Below are positions 2,678 to 58,797 of a stretch of DNA of 64,000 nt, in pieces (the first letter of the stretch is position 1; every line of letters begins with the position of its first letter). A model generated the notes under the pieces. It ran no database searches, had not been told where the DNA came from, and saw nothing but the letters and a program-made list of their open reading frames with translations. The DNA comes from an uncultured Polaromonas sp. Lineage in GTDB: Bacteria > Pseudomonadota > Gammaproteobacteria > Burkholderiales > Burkholderiaceae_C. Where the stretch lies: positions 2,137 to 66,136 of the forward strand of contig CALMEI010000063.1 in NCBI GenBank assembly GCA_937863225.1, in the 5' to 3' direction. A program made the position numbers and the translations under genes.

Positions 2678-3403
2678 ATGCAAACCCAATTTCTCGGCCG
2701 TGTTGAGTACCTGCCGACTTACTTGGCCATGCAAACCTATACGGATCAGCGCAACCTACAAAATTCAGACGAAATCAGCCTCAAGCCTGCGAATTTATTG
2801 CCAAATGTGCTATGGATTTGTGAGCATGAGCCGGTTTTCACTCAAGGTTTAGCCGGCAAAACTGAACACATTTTGAATGCGGGTGACATTCCCATTGTAC
2901 AAACCAACCGTGGCGGGCAAGTGACGTACCACGGTCCTGGGCAAGTGGTGGCTTACCCCTTGATTGATTTGAAAGCCGCTGGCTTTTTTGTCAAAGGTTA
3001 TGTGTATCGATTGGAAGAAGCCATCATCCGGACTTTGGCTGATTTTGGCGTAACGGGTCACCGCGTGGCGGGTGCACCAGGCATTTATGTTCGGCTGGAT
3101 GATCCTTTTTCGCACGCCTTGTTGCCGCAAAGACCGCAAAAAAGCAACGTTGGACAAACCGCGATTGATTTCACTGGCTTGGGGAAAATTGCCGCATTGG
3201 GCATCAAAGTCAGCCGCCATTGTGCTTACCACGGCGTCGCGCTGAATGTGGCGATGGACTTAGAGCCCTTTTCACGCATCAATCCTTGCGGTTATTCTGG
3301 GCTACAGACTGTTGATCTTGCCATGCTTGGTGTATCCACCTCTTGGAATGAGGTGGCCCACGTTTTGGCGAATAAACTCAGCGCGTATTTGGCCCCTATT
3401 TAA
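2678..3403 (+). CDS. lipB: octanoyltransferase LipB
   Basis: ATG at 2678 lies inside track ORF 2579..3403 and just after the upstream stop. [13 protein letters not shown] and [10 protein letters not shown] motifs are typical of LipB. Confidence 0.9.
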
Positions 3404-3995: not shown

Positions 3996-4979
3996 ATGAC
4001 CACCTCCAACACCATTCGAGAAGCGCAAAGCCAGCAAGACTACAACCCTCTGGCCAAACAAAAAGCGGGCGCCAAGCTGTCACGCATTCCCGTCAAAGTG
4101 GTGCCAGGCGAAATTCTCAAAAAACCCGACTGGATTCGCGTCAAAGCAGGCTCACCGTCTACCCGCTTTTACGAAATCAAAGACGTGCTGCGAAGCAACA
4201 AGCTGGTGACCGTGTGCGAAGAAGCTTCTTGCCCCAACATTGGCGAATGTTTTGGCAAAGGCACGGCCACCTTCATGATCATGGGTGACAAATGCACCCG
4301 CCGCTGTCCCTTTTGCGATGTCGGACATGGTCGGCCAGACCCCTTGGATGCCGATGAACCTTTGAATTTGGCCAAAACCATTGCTGCACTGAAGCTCAAA
4401 TACGTGGTCATCACCAGTGTGGATCGTGACGATTTGCGCGATGGGGGCGCTCAGCATTTTGTGGACTGTATTCGAAACATTCGCGAACTTTCACCGCAGA
4501 CACAAATTGAAGTTTTGGTGCCCGACTTCAGGGGGCGTGATGACCGTGCTTTGAAAATCTTAACGACTGCGCCGCCCGATGTGATGAACCACAACTTGGA
4601 AACCGCACCGCGGCTGTATAAAGAAGCACGACCAGGCTCTGACTATTTATTCTCACTGCAACTGCTGAAAAAATTCAAAGACTTGCACCCCCATGTGCCG
4701 ACCAAAAGCGGCATCATGGTCGGCTTAGGCGAGACCGACGAAGAAGTGCTGCAAGTCATGCAAGACATGCGCAACCACAACATCGACATGCTCACCATTG
4801 GTCAATACCTCGCACCATCCAACGCGCACTTAACCGTCAAACGCTATGTGCACCCCGACACCTTCAAAATGTTCGAAACCCGTGCCTACGAGATGGGCTT
4901 TAGCCACGCCGCCGTGGGCGCCATGGTGCGTTCAAGCTACCATGCGGACGTGCAGGCCAGTAAAGCAGTCGCATCCTAG
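3996..4979 (+). CDS. lipA: lipoyl synthase LipA (radical SAM)
   Basis: [12 protein letters not shown] and [10 protein letters not shown] cysteine clusters; full-length 327 aa. Confidence 0.95.
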
Positions 4980-5030
4980 CCTTTTTGAGTTGCTTTGCAG
5001 AATTTTTCGGAAAATTTTGATATCTCAGAA

Positions 5031-5432
5031 TTACAAATTAGGTCGCTCAATCAACTCTATTTTGTAACCGTCCGGGTCAGTAATGAAGGCGATCACGGTA
5101 TTTCCGCCCTTAACGGGCCCAGGCTCACGTGTGATCGCACCACCTAGGCTCGCTGCGCGCTCGCGCACGGCAGTGCAAGTGGCCACCACATCGCGCACAC
5201 CAATCGCAAGATGGCCATAGGCGTTACCCAGCTCATAGCTTTCAACGCCATGGTTATAGGTCAGCTCAATCTCGGCGTGATCGGGGTTGGTGCCATAGCC
5301 CACGAAAGCGAGCGAGTATTTTTGCTCGGGGCGTTCGGTGGTGCGCAGCAGTTGCATGCCGAGCACTTGCGTATAAAAATCAATCGCGCGCTGAAGGTTG
5401 CCAACGCGCAACATGGTATGTAGGATTCTCAT
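5031..5432 (-). CDS. gloA: lactoylglutathione lyase (glyoxalase I)
   Basis: [26 protein letters not shown]... is a typical GloA N-terminus; 133 aa. Confidence 0.85.
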
Positions 5433-5433
5433 G

Positions 5434-7002
5434 TTAAACCGTTCCTCCCACAGTCAGCCCATCAATTCGCAACGTCGGTTGCCCCACACCCACTGGCACA
5501 CTTTGCCCCTCTTTGCCGCAGGTGCCCACGCCACTGTCCAACTTCACATCGTTGCCAATCATGCTGACTTGTTTCAAGCACTCTGGCCCACTGCCAATCA
5601 GCGTGGCGCCTTTGACGGGGTATTGAATTTTGCCGTTTTCTACCCAGTACGCTTCGGAGGCTGAAAAGACAAATTTGCCGGATGTGATGTCCACCTGTCC
5701 ACCACCGAAATTACTGGCATACAGTCCTTTTTTGATGCTGGCAATCACTTCGGCAGGTTCTTTGTCGCCACCCAACATGTAAGTATTGGTCATGCGCGGC
5801 ATGGGGGTATGGGCGTAGCTTTCGCGTCGGCCATTGCCCGTCGGCTTCACGCCCATCAAGCGTGCGTTCATGCTGTCTTGGATGTACCCCTTTAGGATGC
5901 CGTCTTCAATCAGCACATTGCGTTGCGTCGGGTTGCCTTCGTCGTCCACATTCAGCGAGCCACGTCGATCAGGCAAGGTGCCGTCATCCAGCACCGTCAC
6001 GCCTTTGGCCGCGACGCGTTTGCCTATTTTGCCGCTGAAAGCGCTGGAACCTTTGCGGTTGAAATCGCCCTCCAAGCCATGACCAATCGCCTCATGCAAC
6101 AAAATGCCCGGCCAGCCTGCGCCCAGCACCACCGTCATCACACCCGCAGGTGCGGGGCGGGACTCTAAATTGGTGAGCGCTGAGTTAACGGCTTGGTTCA
6201 CATAGTCTGCTATCAGCGCATCATCAAAATAATCCATGCCGAACCGTCCACCGCCGCCAGCCGATCCCGTTTCGCGACGCAACTCGCCTTTGATGGTTTG
6301 CTCCACAATCACCATCACGCTCAAACGCACCAAAGGTCGCACATCCGCCGCCAAGACACCATTGGCGCGAGCCACCAGCACCACGTCGTGCTCGCTGGCC
6401 AAACTGGCCATAACTTGCTTGACGCGCGGATCCTTGGCTCTGGCCAGCTGCTCCACTTTTTCCAGCAACTTCACTTTGTTGGCGCTGTCTAATGAAGCAA
6501 TCGGGTCCAGCTCAGCATAGAGCGATCGGCTTTTTGCTATGTTTTTAATAGCTATCTTGGCAGATTTATTGCCGGCTACCGTCGAAATTGACCTGACAGT
6601 GCGGGCTGCATCCAAGAGCGACGGCATCGATATATCGTCGGAGTAAGCAAACGCCGTTTTCTCGCCACTGACCGCACGCACACCCACGCCTTGGTCAATG
6701 CTGAAGGTGCCTGTCTTGACGATGCCCTCTTCCAAACTCCAACCCTCTGAGCGTGTGGTTTGGAAGTACAAATCGGCATCGTCGACTTTGTGCGCCCGTA
6801 TTTCACTCAAGACTCGCGATAGGTGTGACTGCGTCAAACCAAATGGCGTGAGCAATATTTTTTTAGCAATCGCAATGCGCTGTTCGGTTGCCATTTGCAG
6901 CGGTGCAGGGCGTTTGCTGTGTCGCATGACCTGCTCAGCCGACGATTGCCCGTTGAGTGAGTGTTGCAGTGCAGGATTTGGAGTGGAGAGTCTAGATGTC
7001 AT
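5434..7002 (-). CDS. tldD: metalloprotease TldD
   Basis: [11 protein letters not shown] motif and TldD/PmbA-like sequence throughout. The start is uncertain: ATG at 7002, or ATG at 6894 giving 486 aa. Confidence 0.85.
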
Positions 7003-9042: not shown

Positions 9043-11973
<2,931 letters not shown>

Positions 11974-16584: not shown

Positions 16585-16588
16585 TGTA

Positions 16589-16655
16589 TTTTATATATCA
16601 AATCTGGCTGTAGGCGGCGTATTGATTGCCTAGAGTGCTATTTAATTTATAGCAA
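16589..16655. repeat. dispersed 65-70 bp repeat family, intergenic copy
   Basis: ...ATCTGGCTGTAGGCGGCGTATTGATTGCCTAGAGTGCTATTTAATTTATAGCAA lies between two convergent stop codons (16584 and 16664). Confidence 0.85.
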
Positions 16656-16663
16656 TCTAGAAA

Positions 16664-17305
16664 CTACGGGCACGTATATTTTGTTGGCGATCTGAACGAC
16701 ATGCCTGACAGTGCTGCGTTGTATTGCATATAACGAATAAGCCGGTCTTTGGTACTGGTATTCATTGCTTCCATTTGTTTCGATATCTTATAGCTTTCAT
16801 CACGATTTGGGTTATAGGCATCACCCAAACACTTTGTGGCAAGCATTAATTCGTCCTCGAGTTTTTGTAACGCAACTTTGTCATTCAGGTCAACCAATAG
16901 CGTCTTCTGAAATGCCGCAGCTTTTAACATTGCTGAGCTTTTTTGTTGATCTGTCATGGGTTGTGCGGCAATCCAAGCCTCCATGTCATCGCGCACACCG
17001 TTTAGGTTTTGGTCTGCGCCCTTGATGTCTTTGGAGACGTCTATTTTGGGCAGCTTTCCTCTGGCCTGCATGTCTTTGACTTCGCCTCTTAAATCCATAT
17101 CAGCAGGCAAGGGATCTACTTGCGCAGTTTGCTGATATGTGGTGGCGCTTGCACCTGACTGTGGGCTTGCTGTAGTTCGCGGCAGCATCTCGACGGGTGC
17201 AGTGTCATCCGTGCTGAAACTGCACCATGCCAAGCCTAGACAGGCAAGGACTATCGCCAAATAGGGTGCGGCTTTGCGTAAGATTATGGGATTAGATGTA
17301 GCCAT
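16664..17305 (-). CDS. hypothetical lipoprotein/secreted protein, partner of the upstream hydrolase
   Basis: N-terminal hydrophobic segment with LAIVLAC (lipobox-like). AT-rich relative to neighbours. No family recognised. Confidence 0.55.
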   Translation of the reverse strand: MATSNPIILRKAAPYLAIVLACLGLAWCSFSTDDTAPVEMLPRTTASPQSGASATTYQQTAQVDPLPADMDLRGEVKDMQARGKLPKIDVSKDIKGADQNLNGVRDDMEAWIAAQPMTDQQKSSAMLKAAAFQKTLLVDLNDKVALQKLEDELMLATKCLGDAYNPNRDESYKISKQMEAMNTSTKDRLIRYMQYNAALSGMSFRSPTKYTCP

Positions 17306-18993: not shown

Positions 18994-19061
18994 AAAATAT
19001 ATGAAAAATTGGCCTGTAGGCGGCGTATTGATTGCCTAGAGTGCTATTTAATTTATAGCAA
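18994..19061. repeat. dispersed 65-70 bp repeat family, intergenic copy
   Basis: AAAATATATGAAAAATTGGCCTGTAGGCGGCGTATTGATTGCCTAGAGTGCTATTTAATTTATAGCAA. 48 nt are identical to the copy at 16608-16655. Confidence 0.85.
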
Positions 19062-26277: not shown

Positions 26278-26389
26278 TTCAAAACTCCTTGATTCAATAT
26301 ATAGAACGGCTAAAACGCACCATTATCAACAGTACGGAATGACCCTTGCTTTTCTAATGAAACCGTAACATGTGCAATGCGTGGGGTGC

Positions 26390-26456
26390 GCTATGAATAT
26401 AATAGCAATATAGACAATCAATACAACGCTTACAGGCCAATTTGTCACCTAATTTA
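26390..26456. repeat. dispersed 65-70 bp repeat family, degenerate intergenic copy
   Basis: GCTATGAATATAATAGCAATATAGACAATCAATACAACGCTTACAGGCCAATTT..., 28 nt downstream of the stop at 26484. Confidence 0.7.
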
Positions 26457-26483
26457 TTGCTGGCGTAGCCGCTTGAGCCAGGG

Positions 26484-28625: not shown

Positions 28626-29915
28626 ATGACAGCAACATTTTTACCCAAACGCCAAGCCATTGTGGTGTTCATCGCTTTTGCTTTTGCCTATTTTTTATCC
28701 GCATTGATTCGCGCGATCACAGCCACCTTGTCGCCCACGCTCTCTTTAGAGCTGGGTTTGCAAGCGCGTGATCTGGGTTTGCTGGCAGGCGGTTATTTTT
28801 TAGGCTTCGCCGCCATGCAGTTACCCATGGGCAAATGGCTGGATAAGTACGGACCTAAAAAAGTGATTTTGAGTTTGCTACCGATTGCTTTGCTGGGCAG
28901 TGTGGCATTTTCCATGTCCAATCATTTTTATGGCTTGCTGATAGCGCGCATATTCGTTGGTATTGGCGTCAGTGCTTGCCTGATGGCACCGCTGACCGGT
29001 TACCGGCGTTGGCTAGAACCCAGCCAACAACAGCGTGCCAATGCATGGATGCTGATGACCGGCTCGCTTGGTATGGTCGCGGCCACCTTGCCTGTGCAGT
29101 GGCTGATGCCCTTGATCGGTTGGCGTGGCATATTCCTTGTCTTTTCAGCGCTGGTGTTGCTGGCCATTTTGGCATTGCTTTGGCTGGCACCGGCTTGGGA
29201 GTCACCGACAGCAAGCCAACAACAAACCCTGACGCCAAAGTCCAACCAATCGGATACAGGGTATCAACAAGTTTGGGCGAACCCTTATTTTCGCAGCTTG
29301 ATACCGATCGGCTTTTTGGCTTATGGCGGTTTGATTGCTTTGCAAACATTGTGGGTCACACCGTGGATGATTAAGGTGGCTGGCTACAGCCCAGCCCAGG
29401 CCGCGTCGGGTTTGTTTGGCATTAACCTCACCATGCTGTTTACATTTTGGTTGTGGGGCGCCATCAATCCGTGGTTGGTTCAACACAAGATTCATTCCGA
29501 CACGTTGTTGCTGCGTGGTTTTCCTTTAAGTTTTGTCATTTTAGCTATTATAATCATAGCAAGTCAGGCAACAAATACGCCGCCTACAGATCAATTTGGC
29601 AATGTATTTTATGTTTTGCAACAACACATTTGGATACTCTGGGCGCTGTACTTTGTCGGCTGCAGTTTCGTGGCGCTGACACAACCCGCGATTGCCTTGG
29701 TTTTTCCACCTCAGTTGGCAGGTCGGGCATTGTCGGCATTCAATTTGGTGATGTTCTTGGGTGTGTTTGTGGTGCAGTGGAGTTTGGGTTTGCTGATTGA
29801 TGTCTTCAAGTATTGGGGCTATACCGAGGTGCGTGCATTTCAAGGGGCGTTTGTTGTTTACCTGATTTGCGTCATGGCATCCTACGTGTATTTCGCCGTG
29901 AAAAGACCTCGATAA
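28626..29915 (+). CDS. MFS transporter
   Basis: About 12 hydrophobic segments and an MFS-like GKWLDKYGPKK loop. Confidence 0.8.
   Translation: MTATFLPKRQAIVVFIAFAFAYFLSALIRAITATLSPTLSLELGLQARDLGLLAGGYFLGFAAMQLPMGKWLDKYGPKKVILSLLPIALLGSVAFSMSNHFYGLLIARIFVGIGVSACLMAPLTGYRRWLEPSQQQRANAWMLMTGSLGMVAATLPVQWLMPLIGWRGIFLVFSALVLLAILALLWLAPAWESPTASQQQTLTPKSNQSDTGYQQVWANPYFRSLIPIGFLAYGGLIALQTLWVTPWMIKVAGYSPAQAASGLFGINLTMLFTFWLWGAINPWLVQHKIHSDTLLLRGFPLSFVILAIIIIASQATNTPPTDQFGNVFYVLQQHIWILWALYFVGCSFVALTQPAIALVFPPQLAGRALSAFNLVMFLGVFVVQWSLGLLIDVFKYWGYTEVRAFQGAFVVYLICVMASYVYFAVKRPR
29544..29612. repeat. dispersed 65-70 bp repeat family, copy inside the MFS gene (in frame)
   Basis: GCTATTATAATCATAGCAAGTCAGGCAACAAATACGCCGCCTACAGATCAATTTGGCAATGTATTTTATG encodes AIIIIASQATNTPPTDQFGNVFY. 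Confidence 0.8.
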
Positions 29916-31850: not shown

Positions 31851-32729
31851 CTATAGCTTGGTGCTTAATTTAACGGGTGTGGCTTTGATGTCTTCATCGG
31901 GTTGGATACGCTCACTCATCCAGCGGGTTAAATCCAACCACATTTGCCGCATCTCAGAATCCAGCGGGGTGCGTTGCGCATTGGGTAACTCTATCGTTAC
32001 AACAGGGATGCGTTTGTGAATACCGCCGTAGTTGCCTAAGGAGCCTGGGTAAATTCCCACTTGGTCCAAATACAAACGCCCCAACTTACCGGGCGGAACG
32101 GTAGGACCGTCAAAATCTAAAACACCAAAAGGTGCGTGAATGCTGACAATCAGATTGGGTTTGAAGCGCTCCATCTGGGCGTGCAAAAATTTAGATTCTG
32201 GTTCAGACAAAGGGCCGGGGCCTGGCCAGCGCCGAGGGTCTTTTTTGGTACGTTGCTCCCAATAAATTTTGGCTTGCTTGTGCCAATTGGGCGTCGGGAA
32301 ATTGCGATTCAGATCGACGCCGTTCGCATTGACGCGTTTGCTTGGTTTGGCATACAAACCATCTGGATTGAGCAAAGGTATAAAGCGCCAATGCACTTCT
32401 ACAGGTGTTTGCTTTACCAAGCCAATCCAATGCATCGCAACCGATGTTGAAGACATTTCATCCCCATGGATGCCGCCAATGACGAGCACGCGCAACTTGG
32501 CATCGTCTGGCAGCACATCACGGGTCATGAGCGGAACGCCGTTGACGGAGCGCGCACCTGAGTCCAACAATTGAGTTTGCACACAGGTACTTTGCGACAC
32601 GCTGGGCAAGTGGCGTGTCAGGGTGTTGCAAAATTGATTTTTGTTGGCATCAATAGCGACTGAAGCTGGCGTATTTATTGCCTGAGTTGCTATTATTGCT
32701 ATAGCAAGCGCCTTGTGTATCAAATACAT
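31851..32729 (-). CDS. M14 zinc carboxypeptidase-family protein (murein peptide amidase MpaA-like)
   Basis: VIGGIHGDEMSS, LNPDG and GVDLNRNFP motifs. The N-terminus is built from a repeat copy. Confidence 0.75.
   Translation of the reverse strand: MYLIHKALAIAIIATQAINTPASVAIDANKNQFCNTLTRHLPSVSQSTCVQTQLLDSGARSVNGVPLMTRDVLPDDAKLRVLVIGGIHGDEMSSTSVAMHWIGLVKQTPVEVHWRFIPLLNPDGLYAKPSKRVNANGVDLNRNFPTPNWHKQAKIYWEQRTKKDPRRWPGPGPLSEPESKFLHAQMERFKPNLIVSIHAPFGVLDFDGPTVPPGKLGRLYLDQVGIYPGSLGNYGGIHKRIPVVTIELPNAQRTPLDSEMRQMWLDLTRWMSERIQPDEDIKATPVKLSTKL
32650..32705. repeat. dispersed 65-70 bp repeat family, copy forming codons about 9-27 of the M14 peptidase gene
   Basis: The plus strand reads ...GCTGGCGTATTTATTGCCTGAGTTGCTATTATTGCTATAGC. 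In gene sense this encodes AIAIIATQAINTPAS. Confidence 0.8.
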
Positions 32730-35482: not shown

Positions 35483-35630
35483 TTTTTAAACTTCTATTTG
35501 CATGTGTTTTTATCAATGCTACTCAGGGTTAAACGCGGCCGACCTTTCGCGCGAAAGGACATGATGCATCTGGCCTATCTTGATTTGCATGAAGCCAGCG
35601 TAAAGTATTGTAAATTTCATATCCTGAATT

Positions 35631-35698
35631 GCTATATTATTCATAGCACTCTAGGCAATTAATACGCCGTCTAGAGCCTGATTTTTCATATATTTTAG
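35631..35698. repeat. dispersed 65-70 bp repeat family, intergenic copy
   Basis: GCTATATTATTCATAGCACTCTAGGCAATTAATACGCCGTCTAGAGCCTGATTTTTCATATATTTTAG, 11 nt downstream of the ampG stop. Confidence 0.85.
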
Positions 35699-40230: not shown

Positions 40231-40296
40231 AAATTTATATAAAATCTGGCTCTATGCGTCATAAGATATGCCTAGAGTGCTATTAAAATCATAGCG
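40231..40296. repeat. dispersed 65-70 bp repeat family, intergenic copy
   Basis: AAATTTATATAAAATCTGGCTCTATGCGTCATAAGATATGCCTAGAGTGCTATTAAAATCATAGCG, 24 nt after the stop at 40207. Confidence 0.8.
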
Positions 40297-40333
40297 CATC
40301 ACTACACATTAAATATCTATCGAGAGGTTCAAC

Positions 40334-51785: not shown

Positions 51786-51854
51786 AAAAATATATGACAA
51801 ATCGACCTCTAGCCGGCATGGTTATTGCCTAGAGTGCTATTAAATCAGTAGCAA
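51786..51854. repeat. dispersed 65-70 bp repeat family, intergenic copy
   Basis: AAAAATATATGACAAATCGACCTCTAGCCGGCATGGTTATTGCCTAGAGTGCTATTAAATCAGTAGCA lies between convergent stops (51782 and 51869). Confidence 0.8.
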
Positions 51855-53245: not shown

Positions 53246-54148
53246 ATGACAATTACCAAAGACTTTGCAGACCTGGATGGTCGGCTCCTAAAGCTGCTGT
53301 TGGCGGTGGTAGAGACTGGCTCCATCACCGCGGCGGCCGTGCAACTGGGGGTCACCCAATCGGCGGTGAGCCATTTGCTGGACAAGCTGCGCGCCATCAC
53401 GGGCGACCCATTGTTTGTGAAATCGGGGCGCGGCATTGTGGCCACACAGCGTGCCCTGCTGCTGGCCGTGCAAGCCCGCGAATTGTTGTCTGGCATGGAG
53501 CGCTTTGCCCTGTCAGGCGATTTTGTGCCCGCACGTTGGAAAACCACCTTCACCATCGCCGCCAATGATTTTCAGCGCGATGTGCTGCTGCCGCCCTTGA
53601 TGCAAATCTTGCGCGAGCAAGCACCGCAGGTGGTGCTGCGCGTGATTCCTTCTGGCATACCCAGCTTAGAAATGCTGCGCAACGAACATTGTCAACTGGT
53701 CATCAGCCCACGCCCGCCGGATGGCACCGACATTGTGCAAAAGCGTTTGTTTGTCGACAAATACCGCGTGTTTTACGACGCCAGCCAGCGCGATGCGCCC
53801 AAAAACAAAGCCGAGTATCTGAATGCCGAACACATCACCGTGGTGTACGAGCCCAAACGCGCTTTGGACATCGACCAATGGCTGTTGGCGCGCGGTGTGC
53901 AGCGGCAGTTTCGTGTGCTGGTGCCGGGCTTTGCCGGCATAGCGCCCTTTATCCGCGGCAGCCACATGCTGGCCACTGTGCCCGGCTTGCTGCAATCGCA
54001 TTTGTTAAACGGCTTGGCATCCTGCCCCGTCCCCGTGGCCTGCCCACCCATGCCCATGTACATGATCTGGCACCAACGCCACCACCTCGACGCAGCGCAC
54101 CAATGGCTGCGCGGCCAACTGGCGGGAATTAAGGCTTTGTTGATTTGA
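53246..54148 (+). CDS. LysR-family transcriptional regulator
   Basis: N-terminal HTH (LKLLLAVVETGSITAAAVQLGVTQSAVSHLL) plus a LysR substrate-binding domain. Confidence 0.9.
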   Translation: MTITKDFADLDGRLLKLLLAVVETGSITAAAVQLGVTQSAVSHLLDKLRAITGDPLFVKSGRGIVATQRALLLAVQARELLSGMERFALSGDFVPARWKTTFTIAANDFQRDVLLPPLMQILREQAPQVVLRVIPSGIPSLEMLRNEHCQLVISPRPPDGTDIVQKRLFVDKYRVFYDASQRDAPKNKAEYLNAEHITVVYEPKRALDIDQWLLARGVQRQFRVLVPGFAGIAPFIRGSHMLATVPGLLQSHLLNGLASCPVPVACPPMPMYMIWHQRHHLDAAHQWLRGQLAGIKALLI

Positions 54149-54273
54149 AGTAATGCGGCGCTGGGTCAGCATTGCATGTTACCGTGCTTGCTGCACAGTA
54201 TGTCAAGCGGCTACCTTCATACTATGGGCTGCAATGCCCACGACGGAGGCGGGCAATTGTATTGGTAACTTAC

Positions 54274-54702
54274 TCAAGGATTGAAAATCAGTATTCGCAA
54301 GTCATCAATTACTGAAAAGTGTTTATTGTTAGCTGTCAACAGAGTCAAAGAGTGCGTCATAGCCGTAGCTGCAATCAGGGCATCAGCCAGATGAACACTG
54401 TGCGACAAGGCGTATTTTTCAACCAAGCTACAAGCCAAGTTGCTAATGGTTTGGGTAATAGGCAAGATGTCTGGCAGAGCCTCGTCATCGCTTGATTTGA
54501 AGGCTTTTTGTATCGCTTTCAGCTCGGTTTTGTTACGACAACCCTGTGCCAACTCCATGTAAGACACTGCTGAAATTACCCAATCAGGCGTGTTTTGCAC
54601 CATGGCAAGCGCATTGGTGTTGCCGCGTGTTAGCCAAATCAACACATCTGAATCAATCAGCACACGGCTGGCAGCCGTTGCAGTTTTTGTAGCGCTGGGC
54701 AT
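54274..54702 (-). CDS. vapC: PIN-domain toxin VapC
   Basis: VLIDSDVLIW N-terminal acidic motif, ...ADALIAATA..., LLTANNKHF. It starts immediately after the antitoxin stop. Confidence 0.8.
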   Translation of the reverse strand: MPSATKTATAASRVLIDSDVLIWLTRGNTNALAMVQNTPDWVISAVSYMELAQGCRNKTELKAIQKAFKSSDDEALPDILPITQTISNLACSLVEKYALSHSVHLADALIAATAMTHSLTLLTANNKHFSVIDDLRILIFNP

Positions 54703-54969
54703 TTAAAACCGTGGTGCCCGCAACGCCCGCACATAGGCTGCAGGGTCAGCCACATCATCCCGCTCTGCCCACATACCCACTATCCCGTTTAAACGCTTTA
54801 CTTTGTCAGTAGAGTCTGTAGGTGTTTGCTGGTCTAAAAACTGGTCAACAGCTTGCCGAATCAACTCACTCTTAGTCACCGCCGACCGCCTGCAGGCCGC
54901 CGCTAGGCGCGTTTGCTGCGTTTGAGTGAGGTAGATTTGGGTACGGGCTAGGGTTTGGGTGGACTGCAT
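54703..54969 (-). CDS. vapB: ribbon-helix-helix antitoxin (VapB/CopG-like)
   Basis: 88 aa. TQIYLTQTQQTRLAAACRRSAVTKSELIRQAVDQFL has an RHH pattern and abuts the PIN gene. Confidence 0.75.
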   Translation of the reverse strand: MQSTQTLARTQIYLTQTQQTRLAAACRRSAVTKSELIRQAVDQFLDQQTPTDSTDKVKRLNGIVGMWAERDDVADPAAYVRALRAPRF

Positions 54970-55021
54970 GATGTATTAATTATACATCAAATTAAATTAT
55001 GTTTATTTTTATAAGTATCTA

Positions 55022-55049
55022 TTTACAAAAAAATAAAAGTGCTTATAAT
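55022..55049 (+). promoter_or_regulatory. sigma70-like promoter of the AT-rich two-gene module
   Basis: TTTACA (55022-55027), a 16 nt spacer, then TATAAT (55044-55049). A GGAGA RBS lies at 55068-55072. Confidence 0.5.
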
Positions 55050-55078
55050 TTAGCTATGATTGGCACTTGGAGATAAAA

Positions 55079-55375
55079 ATGATTACAACCACTGAAGCAT
55101 TAATTTTAGGACTACTTGCTCAAACACCGCTTGGTGCATTTCCTTCTGAATTGATAAATCGTTCAAATGGTAAATTAAAACGTGGTTCTGCTTATGCACT
55201 TTTAGCGCGTATGGAAGATGCCAAGTTGGTTAGTTCAGAATCTGTACAACCGACGGAACTTTTAGCATTAGCACGAACAAAATATAAGATTACAGCGGCT
55301 GGGCAGAATGCGCGAATCGAGTTAGCAAATTATTGCAATCTACCCATTTCATATGATTTTAATTTTGGAGTATGA
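55079..55375 (+). CDS. PadR-like winged-helix transcriptional regulator
   Basis: ATG at 55079 inside ORF 55067..55375. ALILGLLAQ...GSAYALLARMEDAKLVSS...KYKITAAG follows the PadR pattern. Very AT-rich. Confidence 0.6.
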   Translation: MITTTEALILGLLAQTPLGAFPSELINRSNGKLKRGSAYALLARMEDAKLVSSESVQPTELLALARTKYKITAAGQNARIELANYCNLPISYDFNFGV

Positions 55376-55378
55376 ATT

Positions 55379-55831
55379 ATGAAGAAGCCAAACAAAAATT
55401 ATGAAATTGAAGAAACTCCAGACATTGATAAATATTTATATGAATTAAAAGATGCATTCAAATATGAAGATAAATGGAAGGTTGATCTTCAACTGCATAC
55501 AGATTCTCAAAAAATGAAATTTTACTTTCGATTTTTTCGAGCTCAAAATCAAGATTTATATATTCCTAAATTCAAAGTCAATAGAAAAGCTCCTAAGCTT
55601 CAAAAATTAAGCCTGTTTGCTGATAACCTACCTATTTCATGGGGTAAAGTACTTAAAACGGCAGCTGCAGAATACGAGGAGCGTATCAATGAACTATGGG
55701 GAGCAGGTAAATATCGATCTGCGAAATGGAATCAAAAATTAGCTTGGATTTGTGCTTTTAGTAATTTAGGATACTACCTTTGGCTTAAAGTCTGGAAGCC
55801 TGTAAGCACTGTATTTCGTAGATTATTATAA
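55379..55831 (+). CDS. hypothetical protein with a C-terminal hydrophobic helix, unknown function
   Basis: 150 aa, Lys/Tyr/Phe-rich and very AT-rich. LAWICAFSNLGYYLWLKVW is a putative TM helix. The start is 4 nt after the PadR-like stop. Confidence 0.55.
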   Translation: MKKPNKNYEIEETPDIDKYLYELKDAFKYEDKWKVDLQLHTDSQKMKFYFRFFRAQNQDLYIPKFKVNRKAPKLQKLSLFADNLPISWGKVLKTAAAEYEERINELWGAGKYRSAKWNQKLAWICAFSNLGYYLWLKVWKPVSTVFRRLL

Positions 55832-55845
55832 ATTTGGCATTTCAA

Positions 55846-55875
55846 GCAAAAAGCCCTCATTCGAGGGCTTTTTGC
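55846..55875. terminator. bidirectional terminator (perfect 13 bp stem)
   Basis: GCAAAAAGCCCTC-attc-GAGGGCTTTTTGC. Confidence 0.85.
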
Positions 55876-55896
55876 TGTGATTGACTCATTACACAA

Positions 55897-56198
55897 TCAA
55901 ACGTCAATATTCCCCGCCCGCAACGCATTCGTCTCAATAAAATCCCTGCGTGGCTCAACCTCATCCCCCATAAGCATGGTGAAAACGCGGTCGGCTTCGA
56001 TGGCGTCGTCGATTTGGACGCGTTGAAGGCGGTGTACGGTGGGGTCCATGGTGACTTACCACTGTTGGGCGGGGTTTTCTCGCCCAAGCCTTTGTAGCGC
56101 TGGCGACTGGTGTTGCGTTCGGCTTCGGCGATGAGCTACTTCAGGGCGACGTGCTCTTCTTTTCGATGCTCGCCTTCGCCGCGCATGACTTTGGCACT
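55897..56198 (-). pseudogene. gyrB: decayed 3' fragment of DNA gyrase subunit B
   Basis: The minus strand reads ...MRGEGEHRKEEHVALK*LIAEAERNTSRQRYKGLGE, then a frameshift, then [50 protein letters not shown]. This is a typical GyrB C-terminus, and only about 100 codons are present. Confidence 0.8.
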
Positions 56199-56272
56199 AA
56201 CGCCACCAACTCGACGCTGCGCACCAGTGGCTGCGCGACAAACTGGCGGCAATTGCGGCTTTGTTGACTTGA
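56199..56272 (+). repeat. duplicated 3' end of the LysR gene (direct repeat of 54075..54148)
   Basis: 65 of 74 positions are identical by my alignment. It keeps the same frame and stop: RHQLDAAHQWLRDKLAAIAALLT* versus RHHLDAAHQWLRGQLAGIKALLI*. Confidence 0.85.
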
Positions 56273-56340
56273 CGCAAATTGATGCGGGCGGGATGCCCTT
56301 AAGCTGTGCGCTGCATAAAATGGCAGCTGGTTAGCTGGGT

Positions 56341-56886
56341 ATGGCAAATTTTAAGAAGGATTTTGATATGGCAACGCTTGAATGGTCAGACGAATTGGCG
56401 CTGGACTTTCCGTTGATGGACGACACGCACCATGAGTTTGTGCAGTTGTTGGCCGAGGTGCACAACGCCAGTGACGACACTTTGCTGATGCATTGGGCCA
56501 ACTTGATTGACCACACCGACGACCACTTTGGTCGTGAAGACGAATGGATGCTGCAAACCGCTTTTGCTTCTGGCAATTGCCACACCACGCAGCACAAAAT
56601 TGTGCTGCAAGTGCTGCGCGAAGGTTTGCAACACGGTCAAAATGGCGACTTGAAAATGATACGTGCCATGGCGGACGAGCTGGCCAATTGGTTTCCGCAA
56701 CACGCGCAAGCCATGGACGCTTCTTTGGCGCTGCACATGCGCCGCGTGGACTTTGACCCTGTGACTGGCAAAATCAACAAACCTGAAGCGTTGCCCAAAG
56801 AGGCCATTCACGGTTGCGGTGGCGACAGTTGCGCTGACAGCGAATCCGGCCTAGCTGCACAGAGCGATGCCAGCGCTTTGGCATGA
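56341..56886 (+). CDS. hemerythrin-like metal-binding protein with a Cys-containing C-terminal tail
   Basis: WSDELALDFPLMDDTHHEF...HTDDHFGREDEWM...HKIVL hemerythrin His/Asp/Glu pattern. An alternative ATG lies at 56368. Confidence 0.8.
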   Translation: MANFKKDFDMATLEWSDELALDFPLMDDTHHEFVQLLAEVHNASDDTLLMHWANLIDHTDDHFGREDEWMLQTAFASGNCHTTQHKIVLQVLREGLQHGQNGDLKMIRAMADELANWFPQHAQAMDASLALHMRRVDFDPVTGKINKPEALPKEAIHGCGGDSCADSESGLAAQSDASALA

Positions 56887-57544: not shown

Positions 57545-57600
57545 GTTTTTGGCCTCTAGGCGGCATGTTTGCTGCCTAGAGTGCTATTTAATTTATAGCG
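57545..57600. repeat. dispersed 65-70 bp repeat family, intergenic copy
   Basis: GGCCTCTAGGCGGCATGTTTGCTGCCTAGAGTGCTATTTAATTTATAGCG. It holds a perfect dyad, CTCTAGGC (57554-57561) with GCCTAGAG (57574-57581), and lies between convergent stops. Confidence 0.85.
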
Positions 57601-57603
57601 TTA

Positions 57604-58797
57604 TCACAGTAACACGCCACCTGGCTTCTCACCGCGTTCGTACACCACATGGGCGCGACCGACGATTAAATTGTCCAGCGTGCCGATATTGATCAAGTCC
57701 TTGTTGGTATAGGGCAGCTTGTGCAACACGTAGCGCATGGCGTTCAAGCGGGCGCGTTTTTTACAGTCGGATTTGATGACCGTCCACGGCGCATCGGCAG
57801 TGTCGGTTTCAAAAAACATGGCTTCTTTGGCCTTGGTGTAGTCGTCCCATTTGTCCAGCGATGCAACGTCAATGGGGCTGAGTTTCCACTGCTTGAGTGG
57901 GTGCAGCTCGCGCTCTTTGAACCGGCGACGCTGCTCTTTGCGGCTGACTGAAAACCAAAATTTAATCAGGTGAATGCCGCTGGCAACCAGTTGCCGCTCA
58001 AACATCGGCGCTTGGTGTGTGAACTCTTGGTATTCTTTTTCGGTGCAAAAGCCCATGACCCGCTCGACACCGGCACGGTTGTACCACGAGCGGTCAAACA
58101 TGACGATTTCGCCCGCGGTTGGCAAGTGCTCGACATAGCGCTGGAAATACCATTGGCCGCGTTCGGTTTCAGATGGTTTTTCTAAGGCCACCAAGCGTGC
58201 GCCGCGTGGGTTTAAATGTTCCATGAAGCGCTTGATGGTGCCCCCTTTGCCGGCCGCATCGCGCCCTTCAAACAAGATGACCACGCGTTGTTTGGTTTCT
58301 TTGACCCAGCTTTGCAGCTTCAGCAACTCAACTTGCAGTGCGTATTTTTGGGCTTCGTAGCGCTTGCGCGTCATCAGGTTTTTGTAGGGGTAGCCGCCGC
58401 TGCGCCAGTCGCTGGACAGTTCTTCGTCGGGGTTGATTTTGTCGCCTTTGCCTTTTTTGCCAATTAACATTTGGCGCACGGCGGCAATGTCGTCGGGCGA
58501 GCTGCCTTTTAAAAACGTTTCCAAAGTGGCGGCTTTGTCTTTGCTTTTGGCCACAATGTCTTTCAGCGCATTGAGCTGCGCACCCTGCGCGGCATCTTGC
58601 CGTTTGTTGATTTGATTCAGCCCCACGCCCTGACTGGTTTTGGCACCACTGACATCGCCCTGCTGAACCGTGCGCGTTGCTTGGGGCTGGCGCTTGGCCG
58701 CTGCTTTGCGCGCTGGCGGGGTGCGGGTTGCGGGTTTGGCTGTGCTTGTTTTGGTTGCGGTTTTGGTAGCGGTATTGCTTGTCTTTTGAACTGCCAT
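57604..58797 (-). CDS. ppk2: polyphosphate kinase 2 with a long basic N-terminal extension
   Basis: VVILFEGRDAAGKGGTIKRF Walker A and PPK2 sequence. ATG at 58797 inside ORF 57604..58854. Confidence 0.85.
   Translation of the reverse strand: MAVQKTSNTATKTATKTSTAKPATRTPPARKAAAKRQPQATRTVQQGDVSGAKTSQGVGLNQINKRQDAAQGAQLNALKDIVAKSKDKAATLETFLKGSSPDDIAAVRQMLIGKKGKGDKINPDEELSSDWRSGGYPYKNLMTRKRYEAQKYALQVELLKLQSWVKETKQRVVILFEGRDAAGKGGTIKRFMEHLNPRGARLVALEKPSETERGQWYFQRYVEHLPTAGEIVMFDRSWYNRAGVERVMGFCTEKEYQEFTHQAPMFERQLVASGIHLIKFWFSVSRKEQRRRFKERELHPLKQWKLSPIDVASLDKWDDYTKAKEAMFFETDTADAPWTVIKSDCKKRARLNAMRYVLHKLPYTNKDLINIGTLDNLIVGRAHVVYERGEKPGGVLL

Follow-up and report, generated by a model that had tools for sequence, protein, structure and literature searches.

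A 2-kb islet between duplicated LysR gene ends in an uncultured Polaromonas sp., a probable copy-insertion scar of a gyrB-adjacent toxin-antitoxin module

Some integrative islands and prophages integrate at the 3' end of a gene or tRNA, which is then restored by a copy carried on the element, and the two copies form the attL and attR direct repeats. Type II VapBC toxin-antitoxin modules are stabilisers of accessory DNA. In homology-facilitated illegitimate recombination (HFIR) the joins comprise 3-10 bp, according to the portion of PMC6382021 that cites de Vries and Wackernagel (2002). A locus with likenesses to each of these systems was analysed in a stretch of 64,000 nucleotides from an uncultured Polaromonas sp. 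(contig CALMEI010000063.1 of assembly GCA_937863225.1, positions 2,137 to 66,136), which is called the window below. Coordinates are window positions unless a contig is named, and L-numbers denote related contigs or loci that were fetched for comparison. The locus is an islet of about 2 kb between an intact gene for a LysR-family regulator (LysR) and a gene for a hemerythrin-domain protein. It is bracketed by a direct repeat of the LysR 3' end and contains vapC and vapB, a gene for a PadR-like regulator (padR), a gene for an unknown protein of 150 amino acids (aa; unk, Unk150) and a fragment of gyrB. The islet is probably an old scar, formed without an integrase by the copying and insertion of a module that adjoins gyrB.

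The repeat pair reported by the first-pass annotation of this DNA, 54075-54148 and 56199-56272, was recovered as described, with 65 of 74 positions identical and the same frame and stop codon in both copies. It could be extended without gaps to 54068-54153 and 56192-56277 (74 of 86 positions, 86%; blastn E = 6e-24), and in a gapped alignment a weaker similarity persisted for about 18-22 nt beyond the stop codon, to about 54166 and 56294. This pair is by far the largest repeat in the region from 52 to 58.5 kb, and the longest identical run between the copies is 11 nt. The last 81 nt of LysR are part of copy 1.

Scans with LysR of species-representative genomes and metagenomes yielded 145 loci. 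In three related contigs among them, L059, L080 and L014, LysR (87, 90 and 78% aa identity to the window protein, respectively) is followed directly by the hemerythrin gene, and L014 also has the genes for an FAD-binding protein and a pseudouridine synthase that lie downstream in the window. Because these contigs have LysR and the hemerythrin gene without the islet, their arrangement is the ancestral one, and the 2 kb between the repeats is a true insertion at the LysR-hemerythrin junction. The spacer 3' of copy 2 aligns with that of L059, so that copy 2 is continuous with the native upstream region of the hemerythrin gene. The sliding identity to L059 and L080 was at the same level of 85-91% on both flanks, with no step at the junction. 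The unoccupied site in relatives that the annotation had proposed to look for was thus found, and such a site is expected under any insertion mechanism rather than being specific to an integrase. None of the 145 loci, which come from sampled collections of genomes and metagenomes, carried the vapC-vapB and padR-unk genes or gyrB downstream. The identical islet structure was present in the NCBI contig DAOLFY010000005.1 of a metagenome-assembled genome (MAG; GCA_035329845.1), in the ENA assembly L161 (1 mismatch in 11.7 kb) and in the Logan assembly L068 (100% identity). As three assemblies show the same arrangement, it cannot be put down to a single assembler. When the exact protein sequences of LysR, hemerythrin, VapC and Unk150 were looked up, all matches came from the same population.

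The origin of the inserted DNA was traced by context look-ups, in which vapC-vapB and padR-unk appeared as a fixed four-gene unit. In L069/L070, L076 and L170, which represent three metagenomic lineages, this module is located just downstream of an intact gyrB. In L069/L070 the full dnaA-dnaN-gyrB operon is visible, and a DUF3800 gene stands between unk and gyrB. This place is taken by a DUF4160/DUF2442 pair in L076, where the contig ends inside gyrB with dnaA and dnaN beyond view, and by a REP-like (repetitive extragenic palindrome-like) element and a hairpin alone in L170. Window positions 54274-55830 were 76-82% identical to the modules of L069, L072, L076, L169 and L170, the homology beginning exactly at 54274-54276, and positions 55890-56197 aligned with the last 310 nt or so of the intact gyrB in L069 and L076. 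The collinearity of L170 with the window extended from unk across the hairpin and into gyrB. Owing to this collinearity with L069, L076 and L170 at the DNA level, the islet is identified as a copy of the region downstream of gyrB plus about 100 codons of gyrB itself; the inserted DNA follows an ordinary chromosomal locus and has one end within a gene. In the window, the module and the gyrB fragment are both outgroup to L069, L072 and L076, and the identity to L076 was similar for the module (82%) and for core genes (77%). Judged by these relationships, linked descent of module and fragment within the family would fit.

At the right junction (J2) the gyrB fragment meets the second LysR tail inside a patch of 8-14 nt common to both genes (CATGAcTTTGGCAC). 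By alignment with intact gyrB, the gyrB homology reaches ...CGCATGACTTTGGCAC (about 56199), and the LysR homology begins at CATGA-T(C/T)TGGCACCAACG / CATGA-T(C/T)TGGCAC (about 56184). The corresponding site in the L059 LysR reads CATGATTTGGCACCA. The sequence TTTGGCAC, plus CATGA, is present in the intact gyrB of L069 and L076 and in the LysR tails of the window and L059. Because the two homologies overlap there, the join is placed inside an 8-14 nt microhomology, and it is the position of this microhomology that makes the repeat start where it does. A join of this kind is the hallmark of microhomology-mediated illegitimate recombination. The repeats had been read by the annotation as attL and attR of an element that carried a replacement gene end of its own. 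Copy 2 instead has the gyrB/LysR microhomology junction at its left edge, and what lies between the repeats copies an ordinary chromosomal neighbourhood, consisting of the module and 300 nt of gyrB.

The gyrB fragment is interrupted by two stop codons and a frameshift of 1 nt, and it also shows a deletion of 15 nt and about 16 amino-acid changes. Over aligned positions it shared 85-86% identity with the tails of the intact gyrB in L069 and L076 (81% by blastn, with gaps counted); these two tails were 93% identical to each other and differed by 2 aa only. Relative to other module copies, synonymous codon changes exceeded non-synonymous ones by about 2-3 to 1 in vapC, padR and the C-terminal part of unk, and the module has been maintained under purifying selection. 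Of the codon changes between the two LysR tails, 2 are synonymous and 6 non-synonymous. In a three-way comparison with L059, copy 2 had 7 unique changes and copy 1 had 4, and at 8 positions both copies agreed against L059. The annotation had ascribed the tail differences to orthologue divergence rather than decay; with 2 synonymous versus 6 non-synonymous changes they are unlike constrained orthologue divergence, and copy 2 has more unique changes. The tail pattern would fit a duplication within the lineage followed by decay of the orphan copy, with no foreign orthologous tail required. On the best reading, the gyrB fragment and copy 2 have decayed since the insertion, and the event is old.

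In the course of events that we propose, a DNA end or growing strand slightly beyond the LysR stop codon (about 54166) would have taken the gyrB-downstream region as a template. Copying would have proceeded for about 2.0 kb through vapCB and padR-unk and then for about 300 nt into the gyrB 3' end, and the strand would have rejoined LysR at TTTGGCAC, 81 nt before the LysR stop codon. With the point of return located upstream of the point of departure, the event would duplicate about 100 nt of the target, and this duplication would explain why LysR keeps its full reading frame (copy 1) and why the hemerythrin gene is preceded by an orphan tail (copy 2). The event may have been a template switch or the repair of a double-strand break by copying; both junctions may stem from a single event, with the gyrB region of the same lineage as the presumed source. 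Afterwards the gyrB fragment and copy 2 would have decayed, and the module would have been kept intact, plausibly with the help of the addictive VapBC. The genes parB, parA, gidB (rsmG) and gidA (mnmG) were found about 8-15 kb to the right of the window end (L160 13231-19376). These genes are usually located near the replication origin, and gyrB likewise. Because of their closeness the region is probably origin-proximal, and the real gyrB may be a near neighbour of the locus. Simple inversion models involving gyrB and LysR were rejected, as by reasoning they did not yield the gene order that is observed. The window open reading frame at 6-2654 was considered as the gyrB of this genome and ruled out, since it encodes a ResIII/DEAD helicase. 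A second copy of the gyrB fragment was not found within the window.

Some observations weigh against this course of events. The 107 nt (54167-54273) that adjoin the left junction J1 (about 54166/54167) had no match in about 160 fetched loci or elsewhere in the window, so that the evidence of microhomology comes from J2. Searches with PadR and Unk150 gave no second copy from the MAG of the window, so that the original copy of the module was either lost or left unassembled there. The gyrB locus of this MAG was likewise not recovered, and a source in the same genome is what we infer. The module copy in L072/L073 adjoins a truncated Mu-like prophage and not gyrB, and the closest PadR homologue outside the module is coupled to a recombinase; some link to mobile elements exists. 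The three-way tail comparison spans 86 nt only.

Import from a related donor in which LysR, the module and gyrB were already contiguous is an unlikely alternative. The two tails would then be the donor and recipient orthologues. Such DNA could have entered by HFIR, anchored by homology in ligAB-LysR and joined illegitimately at TTTGGCAC, or as a circle that was excised at the TTTGGCAC microhomology and re-integrated by homologous recombination in the LysR tail. No recombinase is necessary, the tails are 14% diverged, and the microhomology at J2 fits the 3-10 bp given for HFIR joins in the relevant portion of PMC6382021. However, neither the module nor gyrB followed LysR in any of the 145 loci, the identity to L059 and L080 shows no step at the junction, and the 8 positions at which the copies agree against L059 require no foreign donor. 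The surplus of unique, mostly non-synonymous changes in copy 2 also speaks against import, and an earlier illegitimate event would still be needed for J1.

The model of the first-pass annotation, a degraded or non-autonomous island placed into an attB site at the LysR 3' end by a tyrosine recombinase that acted in trans or was lost, must be considered improbable. Equally improbable is its further detail, that the element supplied a replacement gene end and that the repeats represent attL and attR. The insertion itself, the tail that keeps LysR intact and the lack of an integrase inside the islet are supported; the attL/attR assignment is not. Consistent with this model are the direct repeats around the insert with LysR remaining intact, the empty sites in relatives, the low GC content of the padR-unk pair, the presence of the module in more than one context, and a PadR homologue, 74% identical, that is translationally coupled to a tyrosine recombinase in a phage-like element. 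Against it, copy 2 begins at a microhomology join to gyrB coding sequence, and the islet is collinear with gyrB-adjacent chromosomal DNA, including 300 nt of gyrB. In addition, elements carrying the LysR-tail segment, as the annotation envisaged, were absent from the other module copies (L069-L076, L169 and L170), viral contigs, plasmids and phage records. The identity between the copies is nowhere longer than 11 nt, the phage-like contigs L163 and L164 have only padR in common with the islet, and there is no integrase within about 6 kb. Integrase or transposase domains were not detected in the islet or in the called genes of about 6 kb to its left and at least 14 kb to its right. Terminal inverted repeats that pair the islet ends were not found, and the duplication of about 100 nt is unlike the short target-site duplications of transposons, insertion sequences or miniature inverted-repeat transposable elements. 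Plasmids, phages and viral contigs were also searched for the islet and its proteins, and they gave nothing beyond generic gyrB similarity.

In the phage-like contigs (L163 9001-10559 and L164 168-1726) the PadR homologue gene overlaps the start of a gene for a tyrosine recombinase of 426 aa. The element also encodes a DnaB-like helicase, RdgC, thymidylate kinase and a GIY-YIG protein. The Mu-like prophage of L072 (1-11799) stops after a virion morphogenesis gene, and no tail genes precede the module.

It is very doubtful that the four-gene unit is itself a recombinase-less mobile or defence-like module which relocates repeatedly, as its gyrB, prophage and LysR contexts could imply. It might in that case be moved in trans by an L163-like recombinase or via the REP-like elements that flank it elsewhere, and the LysR-tail duplication would be one footprint of such a move. 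The REP-like element is a dispersed sequence of about 60 nt, in which TTAGGCAATAAATACGCCGGCTAGAG comes after a hairpin, GCTATnnnnnnnATAGC; the window has about one copy per 5 kb. In L069, L076 and L072 all small gene blocks downstream of gyrB are flanked by the element, which is oriented like the upstream gene. A cassette array with attC-like sites was considered for these repeats and ruled out, as about 13 copies lie in ordinary intergenic regions of the window and the islet has none.

There is similarly little to recommend a scenario in which a large segment between the LysR tail and gyrB was duplicated in tandem, with the join at the microhomology, and most of the first copy was then deleted, so that only the module and the gyrB fragment stayed beside LysR. 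J2 does look like the join point of a duplication, and the locus lies near parAB and gidAB, genes that are usually close to the origin. In L076 the gyrB-module block is less than 1 kb from the FAD-binding and pseudouridine synthase genes, which in the window are 3.3 kb from the islet. This explanation requires a gyrB to the right of the window in the orientation of the fragment, but the gyrB of L076 is on the far side of the FAD-binding gene and points the opposite way relative to it. A second, precise large deletion would also be needed, and such duplications normally collapse by homologous recombination. An assembly chimera is scarcely credible, for although the source is a MAG, the same structure occurs in three different assemblies, a difference of 14% between the copies is too much for assembler confusion, and the gyrB piece is a decayed pseudogene and not a live gene stitched in.

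The features of the locus and the positions of the REP-like elements are listed in Table 1. Pfam searches bore out the gene content that had been read from the letters alone, with PIN/VapC, ribbon-helix-helix (RHH)/VapB, PadR-like, an unknown open reading frame of 150 aa, a gyrB C-terminal fragment and no integrase. The AT-richness noted for the padR-unk pair was also seen in the GC profile, with 27-38% GC over the pair versus 55-60% in the flanks.

Table 1. Positions of features at the LysR-hemerythrin locus and of REP-like elements
Feature	Position	Strand	Evidence or remark
Intact LysR-family regulator gene	53246-54148	+	Pfam HTH_1 and LysR_substrate; divergent from ligAB
Repeat copy 1: LysR tail, stop codon and about 18 nt of native LysR-hemerythrin spacer	54068-54166	+	
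Spacer between copy 1 and vapC stop codon, about 107 nt	54167-54273		Junction J1 at left edge
vapC, PIN-domain toxin, 142 aa, intact	54274-54702	-	Pfam PIN, E = 1.6e-14
vapB, RHH antitoxin, 88 aa	54703-54969	-	Pfam RHH_1, 22.9 bits (cut-off 20.5)
Perfect 7-5-7 palindrome GATGTATTAATTATACATC, directly upstream of vapB start	54970-54988		Read from sequence
Promoter-like site upstream of padR-like gene	55022-55049	+	11/12 consensus match only
PadR-like small winged-helix regulator, 98 aa	55079-55375	+	Pfam PadR, 29.9 bits (cut-off 27)
Unknown 150-aa protein (Unk150)	55379-55831	+	
Hairpin with perfect 14-bp stem, between unk and gyrB fragment	55845-55876		
gyrB 3'-end pseudogene fragment, about 100 codons	55897-56191	-	Pfam DNA_gyraseB_C (55897-56049), then pseudogene to about 56191
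Junction J2, CATGACTTTGGCAC common to gyrB antisense strand and LysR tail	56184-56199		8-14 nt microhomology
Repeat copy 2: orphan LysR tail and native spacer, running on into hemerythrin upstream region	56192-56294	+	
Hemerythrin-domain gene, native 3' neighbour of LysR	56341-56886	+	Pfam, NCBIfam; synteny in L059, L080 and L014
REP-like element, window	2771-2816, 6516-6595, 11385-11440, 16588-16667, 19004-19061, 26389-26460, 29544-29613, 32656-32707, 35619-35694, 40240-40297, 51795-51854, 57550-57605		
REP-like element, L069	3685-3756, 5055-5126, 6685-6756		
REP-like element, L076	4717-4774, 5351-5408, 7053-7110		
REP-like element, L072	134-193, 1790-1849		

VapC contains the acidic motifs LIDSD, YMELA and LADAL. 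It had 82-86% aa identity to other module copies, with 44-48 synonymous versus 22-25 non-synonymous codon changes. The stop codon of vapB, as read from the sequence, abuts the start codon of vapC. By its PIN acidic residues and an RHH antitoxin encoded ahead of the toxin in the same operon, the pair is classed as a predicted type II toxin-antitoxin system, and the palindrome upstream of vapB is a candidate operator in the divergent promoter region. In L076 (5520-5947) vapC is apparently disrupted, as tblastn gave two pieces and the called gene comprises 108 aa only.

The PadR-like protein was 83-89% identical to its counterparts in the module copies; its NCBIfam match was far under the cut-off. 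Homologues of Unk150 are rare, with 12 in 5.8 billion proteins. The N-terminal 70 residues or so are hypervariable, and the C-terminal 80 or so are conserved and helical, the last helix being hydrophobic. AlphaFold gave a confidence (pLDDT) of about 80 at residues 75-149 only, which are the C-terminal helices. No PDB fold match and no Pfam, NCBIfam or PADLOC match was obtained for Unk150, and its role as a membrane-anchored partner of the PadR-like regulator is a guess. The N-terminal half of unk (55387-55597, about 70 codons) could not be aligned between module copies that are 80-88% identical on either side of it, and the boundaries were sharp; the C-terminal 80 residues were more than 90% conserved among the module copies. 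This suggests a segment replacement or strong diversifying selection at the N-terminus. A distant padR-unk pair was present in L165 (8540-9767) and also in L166-L168. Its PadR is 56% identical and the partner 31% (E = 6e-10), and in L165 it is preceded by an HTH_3 gene in an unrelated chromosomal context. Because of this distant version, the padR-unk pair is older and wider than the four-gene module.

The hairpin with the 14-bp stem is kept at the same place in L076, L072 and L170 and could terminate transcription in both directions. Neither tRNA nor tmRNA genes were found in the window, and Rfam gave no match at the junctions, so that no RNA gene is present to serve as an attachment site. To the left of the locus, L059 (about 4350-6640) and L080 have about 2.2 kb between a thioesterase gene and ligB that the window lacks (at about 51868). 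Over this stretch, L059 and L080 align poorly with one another.

The locus demonstrates that a gene-end duplication around AT-rich toxin-antitoxin DNA can imitate attL/attR repeats without site-specific recombination, and genome scans that call islands from 3'-end direct repeats will mislabel such scars. If our reading is correct, it is a clean natural record of microhomology-mediated copy-insertion, in which both parental contexts are recoverable, a fragment of an essential gene was carried along and the target was preserved. It also brings out a rare, conserved gyrB-adjacent module of four genes with an unknown protein whose N-terminus is hypervariable.

Like islands integrated into 3' ends, the islet consists of foreign-looking DNA bracketed by direct repeats of a gene end, with the target intact and the corresponding sites of relatives empty. 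Unlike them, it has neither an integrase nor a conserved att core, its repeat boundary is a junction with gyrB coding sequence, and no other copy of the cargo has the att-like segment. The resemblance to VapBC stabilisers lies in the PIN toxin that follows an RHH antitoxin in one operon, both intact and under purifying selection. Here, however, the pair belongs to a fixed unit of four genes that also includes a divergent padR-like-unknown pair; the unit was seen in about 12 metagenomic contigs only, usually beside gyrB. Likeness to microhomology-mediated illegitimate recombination and HFIR extends to the join in 8-14 nt of common sequence, to an insert of ordinary chromosomal DNA with a truncated gene, to the lack of a recombinase, terminal inverted repeats or a short target-site duplication, and to the outcome of a duplication plus an insertion. 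In contrast to strict HFIR, the homologous anchor, LysR beside the module in a donor, was found in none of the sampled LysR loci. The event also differs from the HFIR comparison case in being natural and ancient, and in having moved a complete toxin-antitoxin and regulator module with the target gene preserved by a duplication of 100 nt. The islet is a fresh example of an already known process.

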